64,000 nt of DNA from Alphaproteobacteria bacterium (GCA_015062345.1 SUUV01000004.1:8298-72297), one strand, 5' to 3'; positions 351-60,316 are shown, counted from the stretch's first letter. Translations and numbers: made by a program. Notes: generated by a model not told the origin, from the letters alone.

Positions 351-509
351 GTTCATCGGACTTATCGTCAAAAGTAGTGGCGGAAAAAAGAAACAAAAAA
401 CAAACTCACCCCTCATTTTTATGAAATAAAAATGTCTTGGGGTCTTCGAATTAGTAAAAAACACAAGATTTTTGTTTTTTATTCTCATACTTTGAAACCG
501 CCCCTAACT

Positions 510-606
510 GTCACTCCGGCACTTGATGCCGGAGTCCAGGTGGTAATATAGCTAAATTATTCCCTGGATACCGGTGTCTATTCCGAACTAAAGTTCGGGC
601 ACCGGT
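510..606. repeat. REP-like composite palindromic element
   Basis: Contains hairpin ACTCCGGCA-cttga-TGCCGGAGT, a TCCAGG/CCTGGA pair and a nested ACCGGTG...CCGAACT-aa-AGTTCGG...CACCGGT. The right half recurs inverted at ~25722..25800. Confidence 0.7.
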
Positions 607-630
607 AAGACCGTGATGAGAGAGACACCT

Positions 631-788
631 CTACATCATTTTTGATTTAAATTCTTTAAACGACTCTTTTTACTTGCAAAAAAAAAAACGGTTTATGATG
701 CGATGTGAAAGGCAAATTTTTGCACCTTTCAAATGTACTTAAACTTAATTTTTGTAAAGGAATTAAAATTATGAGAAAATATTTTCTT
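631..788 (+). promoter_or_regulatory. Conserved upstream module of pilin-like family, copy 1 (poly-A11 at 678..688)
   Basis: Near-identical to modules at 25564, 35555, 51344 and 60069: TTGCAA(674-679)...TATGAT(694-699), TGAAAGG/CCTTTCA hairpin, aagga RBS, ATGAGAAAATATTTTCTT. Confidence 0.9.
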
Positions 789-1289
789 TTAAGTCTTTCT
801 TGTATATTTAGCAGTTATCAGGCAAATGCTGATAATTCATTTGCGGCCGGACAATTTACAGCTGGTGTATATGTCACCCAAGCTGATGAAATTACTTGTG
901 AACAAAATCTTGAGGCTAGAATAGTTGTTAAAGACAAACCTGAACAATTTACATTACAAATTCTCCCCAATGCATATAATATGGGTGTTTCTGTTGATAC
1001 CAATGTGATAACTGCTGTTGTAACACCTGCACAATGTACAATATCAAACGGCACATTTACTGATGTTTCTAAATTTGAGCTACCAACTGTTGTACCATTA
1101 AATTCTGCAGGAAGTGATGATATTCTTTCCGCAACTCAATCAACCATTGGTGATTTTGAGCTTGTTATATCACCTGATGGTAAAAGTGTAAATATCGGTG
1201 GAACATTTACTATCTATCCTGAAGATATACCAAATACACCAGATCAGATGATAGGTTCAGTAATTCCAATTACTTATACTTATGAATAA
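771..1289 (+). CDS. Secreted pilin-like protein (DUF4402/Csu-like family), paralog 1, the most divergent
   Basis: Start reassigned to the ATG at 771 after the RBS. Signal peptide MRKYFLL...ANA; IGGTFTI motif; C-terminal ITYTYE beta-strand. Confidence 0.7.
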   Translation: MRKYFLLSLSCIFSSYQANADNSFAAGQFTAGVYVTQADEITCEQNLEARIVVKDKPEQFTLQILPNAYNMGVSVDTNVITAVVTPAQCTISNGTFTDVSKFELPTVVPLNSAGSDDILSATQSTIGDFELVISPDGKSVNIGGTFTIYPEDIPNTPDQMIGSVIPITYTYE

Positions 1290-19257: not shown

Positions 19258-20589
19258 ATGAATTTTTTGCAAACTCAATATGCTGTTTTAATTGTTTACG
19301 GTGTCGCATTCTGTTTGTTGATAACGGCAATTTTTTTATATTTTAAATATCGCAAAACCAAAGACCAAATCATTGCCTCTAAAGTTTTGTTTGATGAAAA
19401 ATCATCTCTAATCAAATCGTTGCAAGATAAAGTTGAAGTTTTGAACGAAGAAAATTCAGAGCTTATGGCACAAAATATTCGTATGCAGTCGGATATTGAT
19501 AATCAGAAAAAATATTTAGAAGAAAAAATTTTGTTTTTGGAACAAAACAAAGAAGAATTGTCTTTGCGGTTTAAGGATATATCAAATCAGATTATAAAAG
19601 CGCAAAATGAACAATTCGGTATTGAACAGAAAAATACATTTTCTTTGCTGTTAAAACCGTTTCAGGAACAAATGGCAGAATTTAAGCAAAAAGTTGAGCA
19701 GACGCATGAAGAAAATGTTAAGAACAATGTTTTGTTTGATAAACAGATTAAAGATTTGTTGGATTTGAACAAATCTTTAAGTGATGATGCAAGAGATTTG
19801 AGTAATGCGTTGAAAGGAAATAAAAAAATACAGGGAAACTGGGGTGAGTTTCAACTTGAAAGAGTGCTTGAAATTTCAGGATTGCAAAGAAATATTAACT
19901 ATGTGACGCAAGAAACTTTTCGAAATGAAGACAATCAGATGTTGCGTCCTGATGTTATTGTGATGCTTCCTAATGACAGAAAAGTGATTGTTGATTCTAA
20001 GGTGTCGTTAAATGATTATGTTGCGTTTGTAAATTCCGAAGATGAAAATATGCGTAAAGATTGTTTAAAAAAACACATTCAGTGCATTAAAAACCACATA
20101 GATGAGCTTTCATCGAAAGAATATCAAAAACTGCTAAAAGATTCTATGCTTGATTATGTGGTGATATTTATTCCGGTTGAAAGTGCATATGTTGAGGCTG
20201 TAAGAGAAGATACATCTCTATACGATTATGCATATAAGAAAAACATTATTATTACGACGCCGTCATCGTTGTTGCCTATATTACGAACAATTGAAAATTT
20301 GTGGCAGATAGAAAACCGCAACAAGAATGTGGCAAAAATTGCTGAGCTTGGCGGGGCTTTGTATGATAAAATATCAAATTTTGTTGAGGATATGAAACGC
20401 ATTGATAATGCTATCGGTACAAGCCGAAAATATTATGATGAAGCAATTAAAAAACTTTCAACCGGAAAGGGAAATGCACTGTCATTAGCCGGACAGTTAA
20501 GAGACAGAGGAGCAAAAGTCAGTAAAACATTGTCGGTTGAATATGAAGACAATAATAACTTGTTGACAGATGAGGTGGCAAATGGCTAA
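19258..20589 (+). CDS. rmuC: DNA recombination protein RmuC
   Basis: TM anchor, coiled coil, QGNWGE, RPDVIV.LP, IVDSKVSL, FIPVESAY. Confidence 0.92.
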   Translation: MNFLQTQYAVLIVYGVAFCLLITAIFLYFKYRKTKDQIIASKVLFDEKSSLIKSLQDKVEVLNEENSELMAQNIRMQSDIDNQKKYLEEKILFLEQNKEELSLRFKDISNQIIKAQNEQFGIEQKNTFSLLLKPFQEQMAEFKQKVEQTHEENVKNNVLFDKQIKDLLDLNKSLSDDARDLSNALKGNKKIQGNWGEFQLERVLEISGLQRNINYVTQETFRNEDNQMLRPDVIVMLPNDRKVIVDSKVSLNDYVAFVNSEDENMRKDCLKKHIQCIKNHIDELSSKEYQKLLKDSMLDYVVIFIPVESAYVEAVREDTSLYDYAYKKNIIITTPSSLLPILRTIENLWQIENRNKNVAKIAELGGALYDKISNFVEDMKRIDNAIGTSRKYYDEAIKKLSTGKGNALSLAGQLRDRGAKVSKTLSVEYEDNNNLLTDEVANG

Positions 20590-21658
20590 AAAAATTATAT
20601 TCACGGGTGGCGGAAGTGCAGGGCATGTTACATTAAATTTGGCCTTAATACCCATATTTTTGCAACAAGGCTGGAATGTGACATATATCGGTTCGTATAA
20701 CGGAATTGAAAAAGAGTTGGTGGCCAAATTTGAAAATGTAAAATATATTCCGATTTTAACCGGAAAATTGCGTCGTTATTTTTCTTGGCAAAATTTTATC
20801 GATATGATAAAAATTCCGCTTGGGGTTTTAGAGGCAATTTGGATTGTGTTTAAGCAAAAACCGGATATTGTTTTTTCAAAAGGCGGATTTGTGTCATTTC
20901 CGGTGGTTTTAGCCGCAAAGGTAAATGGTGTTAAGTGCGTAATGCACGAATCAGATGTCACTCCGGGGCTTGCAAATAAAATGTCATTACCGTTTGTATC
21001 AAAGTTCTTTACCACTTTTGAAGATACCGTAAAATATGTCAAAGACAAATCAAAAGTAGATTGCGTGGGGCCGGTGTTGTCCGACAGATTAAAAAACGGT
21101 ACCAAAAAATCAGCTTGCCAAGTGTGTGATTTTGATGAAGGCAAACCGGTTATAATGGTAATCGGCGGTAGCTTGGGTGCTAAAAGCATAAATGATGCCA
21201 TAAGAAAAAATTTATTTAAGCTTTTGAAAAAATATCAAGTCATACACATTTGCGGTAAAGGTCAAGTTGATGAAAGCATTGATAAAAAAGGTTACAAACA
21301 GTTTGATTATGTTTCAGACGAGTTAAAAGATTTTATGGCGGCCGCAGATGTTGTGATATCAAGAGCCGGCTCAAATTCTATTTTTGAACTGTTAAGTTTA
21401 AACAAACCGATGGTTTTGATACCCTTATCCGGTGCATCAAGTCGAGGTGAACAAATGCTTAATGCAAAGTCGTTTCAAAACAGAGGCTATTGTGAGATTG
21501 TTGCCGATGATAAATTGTGTGAAGACGGCTTGTTGCTTGATACACTGGATAAGGTTTACAAAAATAGAGAAATTTACATTGAAAATATGAAAAACAGCGG
21601 ATTTAAGGCTACAAATAATTATGAATTGGTTGAGAAAATAATAAAAACAGATAAATAA
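20582..21658 (+). CDS. murG: MurG glycosyltransferase (Firmicutes-like sequence type)
   Basis: FTGGGSAGHV, TGKLRRY, SKGGFVSFP, HESDVTPGLAN, GGSLGA, SRAGSNS, RGEQMLNA. Confidence 0.88.
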   Translation: MAKKIIFTGGGSAGHVTLNLALIPIFLQQGWNVTYIGSYNGIEKELVAKFENVKYIPILTGKLRRYFSWQNFIDMIKIPLGVLEAIWIVFKQKPDIVFSKGGFVSFPVVLAAKVNGVKCVMHESDVTPGLANKMSLPFVSKFFTTFEDTVKYVKDKSKVDCVGPVLSDRLKNGTKKSACQVCDFDEGKPVIMVIGGSLGAKSINDAIRKNLFKLLKKYQVIHICGKGQVDESIDKKGYKQFDYVSDELKDFMAAADVVISRAGSNSIFELLSLNKPMVLIPLSGASSRGEQMLNAKSFQNRGYCEIVADDKLCEDGLLLDTLDKVYKNREIYIENMKNSGFKATNNYELVEKIIKTDK

Positions 21659-25140: not shown

Positions 25141-25581
25141 CTAATCTAACTCAATAACTGTAAATGAACCTGTATATACACCAACCGGAACATTAGCAGG
25201 AATATTTAATGTGCCACCAATTGCAAAACCACCAGTGGATTCATCAGAAAGGCTTATAGATAGTGTGTTTTCACCATTTTTAATTGTAACAGTTTCTGGA
25301 AAATGCATACTATTTAGGTCATCAAAAGTGGCTAATGTAGCATTGTCTACACTTAAGACATCACCTGTGTGAGATACAACACTGTTTTTTGATATAGTTA
25401 CAGTTGAATCTTTATTGTTTGATTTTATGGCAATTACACCAAAATCTAAATCAGAATATTTTTCAAAAGTATTAGCGGTTACAAGTTCAGCTTTAGCGGT
25501 AACCTCTGCATATCTTGTAGCAGCATTTGCGGTGCTTGTTGCTAAAAGAGCCACAGCGCTCAAAAGAAAATATTTTCTCAT
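25141..25581 (-). CDS. Secreted pilin-like protein (DUF4402/Csu-like), paralog 2
   Basis: MRKYFLLSAVALLATSTANA signal; DLDFGVI; IGGTLNIPAN.PVGVYTGSFTV. Confidence 0.75.
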   Translation of the reverse strand: MRKYFLLSAVALLATSTANAATRYAEVTAKAELVTANTFEKYSDLDFGVIAIKSNNKDSTVTISKNSVVSHTGDVLSVDNATLATFDDLNSMHFPETVTIKNGENTLSISLSDESTGGFAIGGTLNIPANVPVGVYTGSFTVIELD

Positions 25582-25721
25582 AATTTTAAATCCTTTACAA
25601 AAATTCAAGTTTAAATGTACTTGAAAGGTAAAAACTCACCTTTCACATCACATCATAAACCGTTTTTTTTTTTTGCAAGTAAAAAGAGTCTTTGCGTGGA
25701 TTTAAATCAAAAATGAGGTAG
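25564..25721 (-). promoter_or_regulatory. Conserved upstream module, copy 2 (poly-A12; T12 at 25663..25674)
   Basis: Reverse-complement match to 631..788. Confidence 0.9.
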
Positions 25722-25800
25722 AAGTGTCTCTATCCTCCACAGTTATACCGGTGCCCGAAGGGCTTTAGCCCTTAAGGATTAGACACCGATATCCATGCAA
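25722..25800 (-). repeat. Partial REP-like element homologous to ~564..630
   Basis: Minus strand ggatatcggtgtctaatcc...ttcgggcaccggta...agagacac matches ggataccggtgtctattcc...ttcgggcaccggta...agagacac. Confidence 0.75.
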
Positions 25801-35092: not shown

Positions 35093-35572
35093 CTAAAAAG
35101 TAACAGAGAAAGTGACTGTGCCACTATAAGCTCCTGAAGGTGCAGATGCGGGTATTGTTAATATTCCACCAATATTCTCACTACCATCACCAATCCATAT
35201 TTCACCGGAAAGTGTGGGTGATCCTTCACCGGTATCTTCTCCATAAAGTGTAAAATCAACCTGCTTATCTTCAGAAAAATAACTGAAACCAGAAGGAAAA
35301 CGACACTCAAACCTAGTATTATCATATGGAAGACTAATACCGTCAGATAGAGTTGTTTCACCTGAATATTGGTCTACTTGTATTGTTTGTTCTCCCTGTG
35401 CTGAAGCGCTTCTAAGTATAGTTCCGAATTCAGCATCACAATTAAACTCATAGGTATCCATAATAAAAGCTTCGACATTAACGGTAGCATTACCCATAGC
35501 ATCAGCATATGTCTTATTTGTGATAACTGAAATCATCAAAGCCACAGCTGATAAAAGAAAATATTTTCTCAT
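35093..35572 (-). CDS. Secreted pilin-like protein (DUF4402/Csu-like), paralog 3
   Basis: MRKYFLLSAVAL signal; C.AEFGTI; IGGILTIPAS.PSGAYSGTVTFSVTF. Confidence 0.75.
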   Translation of the reverse strand: MRKYFLLSAVALMISVITNKTYADAMGNATVNVEAFIMDTYEFNCDAEFGTILRSASAQGEQTIQVDQYSGETTLSDGISLPYDNTRFECRFPSGFSYFSEDKQVDFTLYGEDTGEGSPTLSGEIWIGDGSENIGGILTIPASAPSGAYSGTVTFSVTF

Positions 35573-35713
35573 AATTTTATTCCTTTACAAAAATTAAGTT
35601 TAAGTACATTTGAAAGGTGCAAAAATTTACCTTTCACATCACATCATAAACCGTTTTTTTTTTTTGCAAGTAAAAAGAGTCGTTTAAAGAATTTAAATCA
35701 AAAATGAGGTAAG
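35555..35713 (-). promoter_or_regulatory. Conserved upstream module, copy 3 (T12 at 35654..35665)
   Basis: Near-identical to copy 1. Confidence 0.9.
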
Positions 35714-51495: not shown

Positions 51496-51671
51496 AAAAT
51501 TATTAAATGTCATTTTATGAGCCGCACAGGGTGTCAGCTCAAAAAAGAAATCTTATCTTGAAATGCGTTAGCATTGCTTGCTTAAATTTTGCAAGCATAA
51601 ATTATGGGTGAGGGGATTAAAAATAAATTTCCCTCCATAAGCTATATGAAGGGAAAACATAATTTTAAAAA

Positions 51672-56630: not shown

Positions 56631-56890
56631 TTAACTATTAGTAATAATTGTAAGGGTAAAAGTGCCTACATAATCACCGGCTTCTATTTTGGAAGGGATA
56701 TGCAATGTGCCACCCATTCCCCAATTATCATCATCAGACAAGTCTAATGTTAATGTTTTTGTTTTACCGGCGGCAAAAAGTTCAATTGTTGATGGATAAT
56801 CCACACCTACCGCATCGGAAAAATGATAACCACCGGGAAATTCATCACAAACAGATGAGGTGGCTGATGTTGTAAATTGTACATAAAGAC
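56631..56890 (-). pseudogene. 5'-truncated pilin-like paralog 6
   Basis: Not in the ORF track. Minus frame ...CDEFPGGYHF...WGMGGTLHIPSKIEAGDYVGTFTLTIITNS* carries the family C-terminal motif; no start, signal peptide or module. Confidence 0.75.
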
Positions 56891-59591: not shown

Positions 59592-60086
59592 TTATTCAAC
59601 GGTAACCAACACTGAAAAAGAACCTGTATATTCACCTACAGGTATGTTTTCTGGAATAAATAATGTGCCACCTATACCAAGGTAATATCCGACGGAATCA
59701 TGTCCTGCCGGACCGCTAGTGAATTGAGATACAAGAAGAGCTGCCTCAGGATTATTAGCATTTGTAAGTATCAACATTTGAGGCAATATAACATTAGCAT
59801 TTTCTACTGAGCTTTGAAATATACAACGAGCAGATTCTATTCCATTTGCAAGCACACCATTATCACCGGTAATTAAAGTGCCTGTTGCAGAATTATAGTC
59901 AAGAGTAAGCATGCTCGTCGGATTATTAGAAGGTACATAAATATCTCCAAAAGTCATTTCAGAGCAAGAAATGCTGGTTACATTTTTAACTGTGGCACTA
60001 ACTTGAATTGTTCCGGTATAATCTTCGGCATTAGCTGTGCTCACAGTTAAAACAGCTACAGCACAAGTAAGAAAATATTTTCTCAT
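59592..60086 (-). CDS. Secreted pilin-like protein (DUF4402/Csu-like), paralog 5
   Basis: MRKYFLT...STANA; CSEMTFGDI; IGGTLFIPENIPVGEYTGSFSVLVTVE. Confidence 0.75.
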   Translation of the reverse strand: MRKYFLTCAVAVLTVSTANAEDYTGTIQVSATVKNVTSISCSEMTFGDIYVPSNNPTSMLTLDYNSATGTLITGDNGVLANGIESARCIFQSSVENANVILPQMLILTNANNPEAALLVSQFTSGPAGHDSVGYYLGIGGTLFIPENIPVGEYTGSFSVLVTVE

Positions 60087-60224
60087 AATTTAATCCTTTA
60101 CAAAAATAGTTTAAGTACATTTGAAAGGTGCAAAAATTTACCTTTCACATCGCATCATAAACCGTTTTTTTTTTTTGCAAGTAAAAAGAGTCTTTTAAGG
60201 TATTTAAATCAAATTTGAGGTAAG
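60069..60224 (-). promoter_or_regulatory. Conserved upstream module, copy 5 (T12 at 60165..60176)
   Basis: Near-identical to the other copies. Confidence 0.9.
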
Positions 60225-60316
60225 AAAAAACAAAGTCTATATTTTTGCTTGTTACATATACAAAATGCGGGGAATGTTACTTAACCCCGCATTTTTAGAG
60301 CTCTTAAATGCTAACT

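Follow-up and report, generated by a model that had tools for sequence, protein, structure and literature searches.

The promoter and 5' untranslated region (UTR) cassettes that precede a large family of small secreted DUF4402 proteins are mosaics of short modules, and they and the gene bodies behind them have fully uncoupled histories; recombination or gene conversion among the family copies is well supported by the sequence comparisons reported here. The stretch in question, positions 25480-25800 (minus strand), lies in a window of 64,000 nucleotides (nt), the whole length of DNA analyzed, from the 1.58-Mb, 62-contig short-read metagenome-assembled genome (MAG) of an uncultured gut alphaproteobacterium (G000). 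It takes in the signal-peptide end of one family gene, the upstream non-coding cassette, and a palindrome-rich extension. Searches of the window with tblastn and blastn recovered five family paralogs, c1 to c5, and the stretch belongs to c2. All five proteins start with MRKYFL, and the five genes have in common ~140 nt upstream of the ATG and the first ~20 coding nt. In this shared block the other copies are 83-89% identical to the stretch (blastn E values of 1e-45 to 1e-60), and their whole-protein identity to c2 is 26-43%. For comparison we used all 52 contigs of a short-read MAG of a sister species from roe-deer colon, designated 'Alphaproteobacteria bacterium' (G003).

A preliminary description of the window had noted conflicting pairings among the five copies and argued that exchange through the conserved block swaps promoters, leaders, and variable domains. 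The pairings themselves are reproduced. Copies c2 and c4 resemble each other in DNA through codons 1-31 (83% identity vs. 49-62% for every other pair), the distal box attctttaaacgactc is common to c1, c3, and c4, where c2 instead has atccacgcaaagactc and c5 has ataccttaaaagactc, and c1 and c5 carry tatgatgCgatg with a C at the position occupied by T in c2, c3, and c4 (c2: 25646-25657). Read directly off the alignment, a hairpin/proximal-UTR variant unites c1, c3, and c5, and the repetitive extragenic palindromic (REP)-like extension unites c1 and c2. The splits {c1,c3,c4}, {c1,c5}, {c1,c3,c5}, and {c1,c2} are mutually incompatible on any single five-sequence tree. The sharing of the extension by c1 and c2 alone holds within the window but fails beyond it, since this separate repeat has ~83 copies in the genome, 65 of them within 400 nt of a promoter core and 18 elsewhere; it is found at about one third of cassettes and is a common optional module, not a private link of c1 and c2. 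Copy c1 lies on the plus strand and c2-c5 on the minus strand, in agreement with the inverted orientation described before. A crossover between c1 and any of c2-c5 would logically invert the DNA between the copies, and no inversion was directly observed in our comparisons.

Assortment of modules within the cassette

The cassette layout was parsed over 95-102 G000 copies. It opens with an invariant ttgatttaaa, followed by a 12-nt box of constant length whose variants are discrete (18 and 13 of the 95 parsed copies have the two most frequent ones) and by an invariant core, gactctttttacttgc-A12-cggtttatgatg, the cggtttatgatg part of which is identical in 95/95 copies. Downstream of the core comes a 6-nt spacer, of which there are four main variants, and then a gaaagg..cctttc inverted repeat that has several different inner sequences. 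They are followed by a proximal UTR of three main forms that are several substitutions and indels apart and by a Shine-Dalgarno (SD)-proximal region of two forms, and the cassette ends in the invariant atgagaaaatattttct. The c2 cassette, in gene orientation, runs from ctacctcatttttgatttaaat through the 12-nt variable box, the core, the 6-nt variable spacer, the inverted repeat, and the proximal UTR to an SD-like aagga. The promoter core, aagga, ATG, and signal peptide were complete in all 95-102 parsed copies.

Linkage between variable sites of the cassette is lost within about 20-40 nt, where it reaches background. Among 106 aligned copies with 92 informative sites, all four gametes were present in 96% of site pairs, and mean r2 decreased from 0.20 at 1-5 nt to 0.036 at 11-20 nt and 0.01 beyond 40 nt. 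Adjacent sites were more compatible than permuted ones in a neighbour-compatibility permutation test (p<0.0005). Alignment shifts can inflate short-range linkage disequilibrium (LD), and the test was therefore repeated with whole-module haplotypes, using seven discrete modules (REP-like extension, 12-nt box, 6-nt spacer, hairpin, proximal UTR, signal peptide, and, in the pair tests, the SD region) in 21 pairs over 102-107 copies. Significant association was observed for the adjacent proximal UTR and SD region (Cramer's V 0.57, p=2e-4) and for the spacer and proximal UTR (p=0.012). The box and SD region were nominally associated (p=0.023), as chance predicts over 21 tests, and the remaining module pairs were indistinguishable from random.

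Cassettes and gene bodies were compared in the same way. The nearest relative of a body had a median rank of 50/110 in cassette similarity, i.e., a random one, and the nearest neighbours by cassette and by body were never the same gene. Mantel controls gave r=0.62 for odd vs. even body columns and 0.48 for the N-terminal vs. the C-terminal half, whereas the cassette vs. body correlation was 0.03; the correlations for UTR and body (0.015), distal module and body (0.05), distal module and UTR (0.014), and UTR and the first 36 codons (0.006) were, like that for the whole cassette, non-significant. Leader and body stay linked, as similarity in the first 36 codons follows that of the body (Mantel r=0.67). 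Of the exchange proposed in the preliminary description, the swapping of promoter and UTR modules is thus upheld by their independent assortment, whereas the case for leaders and variable domains is much weaker.

The N-terminal motif common to c2 and c4, NATTDYAEVTAKAT or close variants of it, occurs in 57/109 G000 genes and 6/29 G003 genes, and bodies inside this group are more alike (mean bit score of 44 vs. 22). The c2-c4 N-terminal identity was ruled out as a conversion tract, being the motif of an expanded subfamily, with polymorphic synonymous codons. The first five codons, ATGAGAAAATATTTT (c2: 25567-25581), are invariant even at synonymous positions in 38/38 subfamily genes, and later conserved residues mix codons, which suggests nucleotide-level constraint at the translation start.

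The window cassettes were also recovered from other samples. Exact-protein look-up in JGI and ENA assemblies retrieved c1-c5 with 0-2 differences over 278-450 nt upstream and, likewise, over 700 nt of gene and downstream flank. In another assembly c1 showed 0 mismatches over 278 nt upstream, and c3 was reproduced in four other assemblies. Because independent assemblies reproduce the window cassettes and random chimeras would not recur, we concluded that the mosaic is not an assembly artefact. In 21 public runs containing the stretch, Logan k=31 contigs of 3-7x depth all broke inside the cassette and provided no usable junctions, and the cassette depth in these runs was at least 100-fold above that of unique flanks.

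Cassette replacement and gene order between sister species

Eleven sites have orthologous downstream flanks in G000 and G003 (78-97% nt identity), the flank often beginning at the first base past the stop codon. The proteins resident at these sites are 81, 70, 53, 51, 49, 47, 36, 32, 29, 29, and 28% identical, so that flanks of 84-97% identity stand beside bodies merely 28-53% identical. A mis-join is excluded at the 11 sites because there is no repeat at the 3' junction, and the pattern indicates that the resident cassette has been replaced at fixed sites between the species. In a further case, G003 locus L029 and G000 C5:37172 are ~90% identical from the 5' edge of the cassette to the stop codon and have unrelated flanks. 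For five body-orthologous pairs with a body nt identity of 0.78-0.93, identity was 0.51-0.69 in the distal module, 0.65-0.87 in the UTR, and 0.73-0.85 in the signal region, and these 5' modules were judged no more alike than those of random cross-species pairs (0.59, 0.69, and 0.69, respectively). The same-genome nearest neighbours of 117/138 cassette copies vs. 92 expected, the species-skewed ttttatagaaagga-type SD regions (6% vs. 59%), and the boxes ttctttaaacga and tcttttaaacga, present in 29 and 22 copies in G000 and in 0 among the 16 parsed cassettes of the first-fetched G003 loci, point to partial concerted evolution of the cassettes.

Cassette sites coincide with breaks in gene order. 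The 1.2-kb flanks of each internal G000 cassette were mapped to G003, with size-matched random sites as controls; 50 cassette sites were rearranged and 2 collinear, compared to 57 rearranged and 131 collinear controls (96% vs. 30%, Fisher p=5e-19). At the c2 site, kdsA and an ABC permease each adjoin other genes in G003. Neither congruent segment trees nor conserved synteny, the two outcomes named beforehand as contradicting exchange, were found: the segments are uncoupled, and 50/52 cassette sites are non-syntenic with G003. Many cassettes have been gained by G000, mostly ones of the TTDYAEVTAKAT subfamily, and rearrangements are frequent in its lineage.

At G000:C44:2660-2880 we observed a deletion relic with a decayed tract (A9), TGG for CGG, and 12 signal-peptide codons running straight into the final ~15 codons and the terminator, at the same site where G003 has an intact 176-aa gene.

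Explanations for the mosaic

The best explanation, and in our judgement a highly probable one, is homologous recombination between dispersed cassettes that has repeatedly moved short patches among the copies. Invariant stretches of 20-40 nt, between which the short variable sub-modules occur as a few discrete multi-nucleotide variants, would prime the exchange. RecA-type gene conversion between dispersed copies, with patchy heteroduplex repair, could then generate a very fine mosaic in which each cassette ends up as a different combination of the same parts. Double events via the cassette and the conserved last (C-terminal) codons might replace whole genes at a fixed site, and the same homology would make cassettes places where gene order breaks between species. 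The genome contains intact recA, mutS, and mutL genes. Loss of mismatch repair was considered as a facilitator and ruled out, mutS and mutL being intact. We infer the enzymology, the tract lengths, the occurrence of ongoing events, and cell-surface variation as the outcome. A broader proposal is tentative and, on balance, doubtful: the ~150 cassettes might form a genome-wide recombination network that continually re-deals box, spacer, hairpin, and proximal UTR among more than 100 alternative fibre-subunit genes and that, more than anything else, drives chromosome rearrangement and cassette turnover in these gut Alphaproteobacteria with small genomes. If this were true, expression would be set separately and evolvably for each gene, by a combinatorial promoter code in place of a simple ON/OFF tract, and surface variation and genome architecture would be mechanistically coupled.

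Several observations weigh against exchange by recombination or restrict what it may account for. Exchange was at no point observed in progress. Three short contigs assembled from other samples link the body of a window gene to a different copy's flank and change over within the cassette. In L042 the c2 body is linked to the flank and distal cassette found at the end of contig C22; in L052, c3 is linked to the C33 cassette's flank, and in L059, c5 to the C36 block. These are candidate recombinants only, and assembly or polymerase chain reaction (PCR) chimeras are possible. The foreign part of L059 is exactly 141 nt long (k=141), and 131 nt beyond the stop codon L042 has another breakpoint that is unexplained. 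A simple graph jump is argued against for L042, because the c2 5' coding region has no long identical counterpart in any G000 paralog (none shares more than 93 nt at 85% identity). A search for the reciprocal product of the c3 x C33 candidate in other samples returned the parental arrangement only. The approximately unbiased (AU) topology tests rejected foreign trees (delta lnL of ~1530 when the body tree was imposed on the cassette alignment) but also the odd/even body control (296-451) and are thus non-discriminating; because the control was also rejected, they were given no weight and the Mantel test was used instead. The polymorphic synonymous codons of the conserved N-terminal motif attribute its conservation to protein selection, not to recent conversion. 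Homogenisation of the cassettes is modest, with a similarity of 0.804 within vs. 0.771 between genomes (p=0.001). With regard to gene order, flanks of the rearranged sites adjoin a cassette in G003 in only 9/50 cases downstream and 2/50 upstream, and since most of these flanks in G003 are not beside a cassette, simple cassette-to-cassette crossover or inversion does not explain most breaks. In addition, 57/188 informative random 3.5-kb control intervals away from cassettes (30%) are non-collinear despite ~93% housekeeping identity; either the clade's gene order changes at an unusually high rate or there are mis-joins in the MAGs. Many contigs of both short-read MAGs start or end inside a cassette, and some of the apparent synteny breaks could be such mis-joins.

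The cassette, alone or together with its gene, might instead be a mobile unit (a mobile promoter, MITE-like [miniature inverted-repeat transposable element] or integron-like) inserted site-specifically or by a transposition-like process, in which case independent insertions before pre-existing genes would uncouple cassette and body histories without general homologous recombination. The very sharp 5' boundary at c(t)tacctca in most pairwise comparisons, the exact-boundary cassette found from block edge to stop codon in unrelated flanks of two species, the core standing alone before a non-family gene (G000:C4:44353-44418), core-only matches in other genera (20 in G019), and the palindromic REP-like repeat beside many cassettes would all fit such insertions. 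However, insertion of whole elements cannot yield free assortment of sub-modules 40 nt apart, and almost no empty sites were seen, only 2/52 flank pairs being adjacent in the sister species. Moreover, the 3' end of the shared sequence grades into coding at several different points, no target-site duplication or terminal inverted repeat was noticed in the cassette alignments, and no recombinase was seen beside the window cassettes, though no search aimed at one was made. We therefore regard a mobile unit, and the uncoupling of histories by its insertion, as improbable.

Two further explanations dispense with exchange altogether and are less probable still. According to one of them, purifying selection holds the invariant parts, and unconstrained or hypermutable sites have mutated repeatedly in old paralogs. 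The bodies are indeed very old (median best within-genome identity of 41%), the full conservation of the core in 95/95 parsed copies requires selection, synonymous sites of the N-terminal motif vary freely, and homoplasy in a 100-member family can inflate four-gamete counts. This explanation is nevertheless strongly disfavoured, as the variants are discrete multi-nucleotide haplotypes with indels (e.g., aatgtacttaaacttaatttttgtaaagga vs. aattaagtttaactatttttaagga), the 12-nt boxes differ at 4-6 positions with each variant common to 6-36 copies, and short-range LD is positive and falls off as sites lie further apart. It likewise fails to account for bodies that are 90-93% identical across species with 5' modules no more alike than random pairs, and for flanks 92-97% identical around bodies only 28-53% identical. 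By the other explanation, the mosaic and the synteny breaks would be artefacts of short-read assembly of a ~150-copy repeat and of multi-strain binning. Contig ends in cassettes of both MAGs, the breaks of all Logan k=31 contigs there, the 141 nt of another copy's block with which L059 opens, and the second breakpoint of L042 would be expected from such artefacts, but the five window cassettes, with their flanks, were obtained with every base the same in up to five independent assemblies, which came from different samples and pipelines, and the k=141 jump is unavailable in the c2 5' coding region, given the paralog limit stated above. The cross-species mismatch of body and downstream flank occurs without a repeat at the junction, and the same module logic is observed in two separately assembled MAGs. 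An origin in assembly or binning is accordingly a very slight possibility, and homologous recombination among dispersed cassettes is the explanation we retain.

Promoter core, protein family, and comparable systems

The tract in the promoter core is A12 in 119, A11 in 19, and A13 in 3 of 152 cores genome-wide. The c2 tract was unchanged in five independent assemblies, the tracts of c1-c5 were constant across independent assemblies at the consensus level, and no ON/OFF-type variation in tract length at one gene was seen at that level among the independent assemblies of c1-c5. The A11 copies showed no association with any module variant. A standard sigma-70 scan did not call the cassette promoter, in which TATGAT lies 15 nt from TTGCAA with A12; the putative -35 and -10 assignment places the A-tract between the two elements. 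Among the five predicted pairs of the hairpin, none showed double compensatory changes (0/5), though the gaaagg/cctttc inverted repeat is conserved, and a structured RNA at this repeat is not claimed. Rfam at the gathering threshold returned no match in any cassette. The REP-like extension contains two GC-rich palindromes, ctccggca..tgccggag and accggtg..caccggt, and may act as an insulator or terminator or be a mobile REP or MITE. At G000:C4:44353-44470, a distal promoter module with A12 and CGGTTTA precedes a different gene (MIKLFLFVLLVFPLVSEATTCVK...), not MRKYFL; as the module fronts a non-family gene, this promoter part is reused outside the DUF4402 family.

Table 1. Family genes, cassette elements, and a partial relic in the 64,000-nt window
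Feature	Positions	Strand	Description
c1 coding sequence	771-1289	+	172 amino acids (aa)
c1 unit	498..1289	+	REP-like extension ~498-610, cassette ~611-770 (tract A11), coding sequence 771-1289
c2 coding sequence	25141-25581	-	Open reading frame (ORF), 146 aa; signal peptide MRKYFLLSAVALLATSTANA, then DUF4402 domain
c2 promoter/5' UTR cassette	25582..25721	-	From the alignment of five copies
c2 A12 tract (T12 on + strand)	25663..25674	-	Within the invariant core
c2 variable distal box atccacgcaaagactc (gene orientation)	25686..25701 (+ strand numbering)	-	Constant 12-nt length family-wide, discrete variants
c2 REP-like palindromic extension	~25722-25800	-	ccggtg..caccgg type arms; common to c1
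c3 unit	35093..35712	-	Coding sequence 35093-35572 (159 aa), cassette 35573-~35712
c4 unit	50927..51500	-	Coding sequence 50927-51361 (144 aa) and cassette; NATTDYAEVTAKAT subfamily, as c2
c5 unit	59592..60226	-	Coding sequence 59592-60086 (164 aa) and cassette
Partial family relic	56652..56822	-	tblastn 36% identity over 59 aa, E=2.6e-6; C-terminal third only

A blastn search found no cassette at the partial relic. Genome-wide, G000 has 152 occurrences of the promoter core (TTGC-A(n)-CGG), 126 exact matches to the 35-38-nt core pattern, and 127-141 MRKYF-type genes of 100-210 aa. The family of small secreted DUF4402 proteins thus comprises about 130-140 dispersed genes in G000, or ~6% of the DNA of this genome by an arithmetic estimate. 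In Pfam searches with PF14352 (DUF4402, cut-off 25.2 bits), c2 scored 44.7 bits (E=2.7e-11), c5 40.2, and c3 27.5; c4 was under the cut-off with 17.6 bits, and c1 had no PF14352 match. Both c1 and c4 are tied to the family through tblastn to c2 and the common cassette. Pfam DUF4402 matches number 66 in G000, 29 in G003, and 9 and 2 in two other members of the genus, and there are none in the remaining three. The kdsA gene of G000 is 93% identical in DNA to that of G003 and ~85% identical to those of other genus members. When one genome per species was scanned, the promoter core pattern was found elsewhere only in G003, and beyond these two genomes there were only fragments of the core. In the genome G019, of another genus in the same family, 20 places match 24-34 nt of the core (query positions 61-94) with 85-92% identity, and several of these lie close to contig ends. 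The MRKYFL cassette may be younger and less widespread than the core and its A-tract.

The AlphaFold2 model of c2 is an all-beta sandwich (predicted local distance difference test score of 79). A Foldseek search of this model against the PDB returned nothing at E<0.08, with Caf1 matched weakly (template modelling score 0.35-0.38, probability 0.30), and a profile search of PDB sequences gave no match for the protein. The sole operon-like DUF4402 locus examined, G000:C30:70030-74995 (locus L159:2031-6996), encodes a 315-aa tandem-DUF4402 protein, a 256-aa chaperone-like protein with a PapD_N match (31.4 bits), and a 1090-aa protein for which Pfam gave a CarboxypepD_reg match only and no Usher match. 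Because this one operon joins a tandem DUF4402 gene, a PapD-like chaperone, and the 1090-aa protein, the family proteins are candidate subunits of a chaperone-dependent fibre. The dispersed family genes have no chaperone gene alongside.

Recombination in multigene families of surface proteins is already known and is found here at unusually large scale. In Borrelia burgdorferi, mutation and recombination among genes in the 'upstream homology box' (UHB) family reportedly create new variants; these genes encode lipoproteins on cp32 prophage plasmids of this spirochaete, in roughly ten copies. As in that family, many paralogs carry a conserved upstream promoter/leader block before divergent mature proteins, whereas here the genes are the 130-140 chromosomally dispersed DUF4402 genes of an alphaproteobacterium, and their promoter consists of freely assorting sub-modules with a homopolymer tract. 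Works on the UHB genes ospE/ospF/erp (Marconi et al., 1996, J Bacteriol 178:5615; Sung et al., 2000, Infect Immun 68:1319) are cited in PMC10016077. In Neisseria, the opa genes occupy 9-12 loci at consistent positions, with non-randomly associated HV1 and HV2 (hypervariable) regions and a coding pentamer-repeat switch (Yu et al., 2026, PMC13183285). Similar to opa, complete self-promoted genes reside at many dispersed loci, diversity arises mostly from shuffling among loci (gene conversion), and every copy has a repeat-type element, which in opa is the switch and here an A-tract for which switching was not seen at the consensus level. The present family differs from opa in its approximately tenfold more copies, in non-coding modules that are in linkage equilibrium, and in loci that coincide with synteny breaks. 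Dispersed complete paralogs, conserved segments flanking variable ones, incongruent segment relationships, and linkage that decays with distance, all features of the opa and UHB type, were each found here. As far as the summary in PMC10502178 of Citti & Wise (1995) goes, the vlp genes of Mycoplasma hyorhinis are a few lipoprotein genes in one cluster, and their ON/OFF switching by tract length has been demonstrated. By that summary, each vlp gene is, as here, its own transcription unit with a conserved promoter containing a poly(A) tract, a conserved signal peptide, and a variable body. In the present family, unlike vlp, the tract is A12 in 119/152 copies and the same across independent samples, and both the protein family and the organism differ.

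Fimbrial and cassette systems provide additional parallels. Bordetella has three or four unlinked fimbrial subunit genes (fim2, fim3, fimX) with C-stretch promoters, BvgA dependence, and canonical usher-family assembly. These alternative subunit genes, too, are unlinked and lie behind related promoters with a homopolymer tract, being served by one chaperone-usher machine in Bordetella; in contrast, the genes of the present family number more than 100 and carry an A-tract, and no protein that Pfam recognises as an Usher lies beside the PapD-like chaperone. The pilE/pilS system of Neisseria and the vsa/vsp systems of Mycoplasma use one or few expression sites with promoterless silent cassettes, or a dedicated invertase. 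Conserved segments flank variable ones there as well, and recombination alters the surface protein, whereas here every copy is complete and separately promoted, as observed for the 95-102 parsed copies.

The present case departs from the UHB, opa, and vlp systems in phylum, protein family, copy number, linkage equilibrium within a promoter, and the tie to synteny breaks; the known cases come from a few pathogens (Neisseria, Borrelia, and Mycoplasma), and the present host is an uncultured ruminant-gut commensal. The literature searched made no mention of DUF4402. It is unusual for a non-coding promoter to be a fine-scale patchwork in linkage equilibrium around an invariant core and for nearly every family member to mark a break in gene order vs. 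a sister species. If long reads confirm the mosaic, the family would offer a natural system in which to measure short-tract gene conversion among many dispersed repeats and would reveal in what way a reduced genome is shaped by a family of repeats. As a practical warning, the cassettes are where this clade's short-read MAGs break up and may be mis-joined. Elsewhere in the window, the full Rfam model RF02895 ('Staphylococcus sRNA 414') matched 21113-21287 on the minus strand with 55.7 bits (gathering threshold 45), inside or antisense to the ORF 20570-21658, which is unexpected in an alphaproteobacterium.

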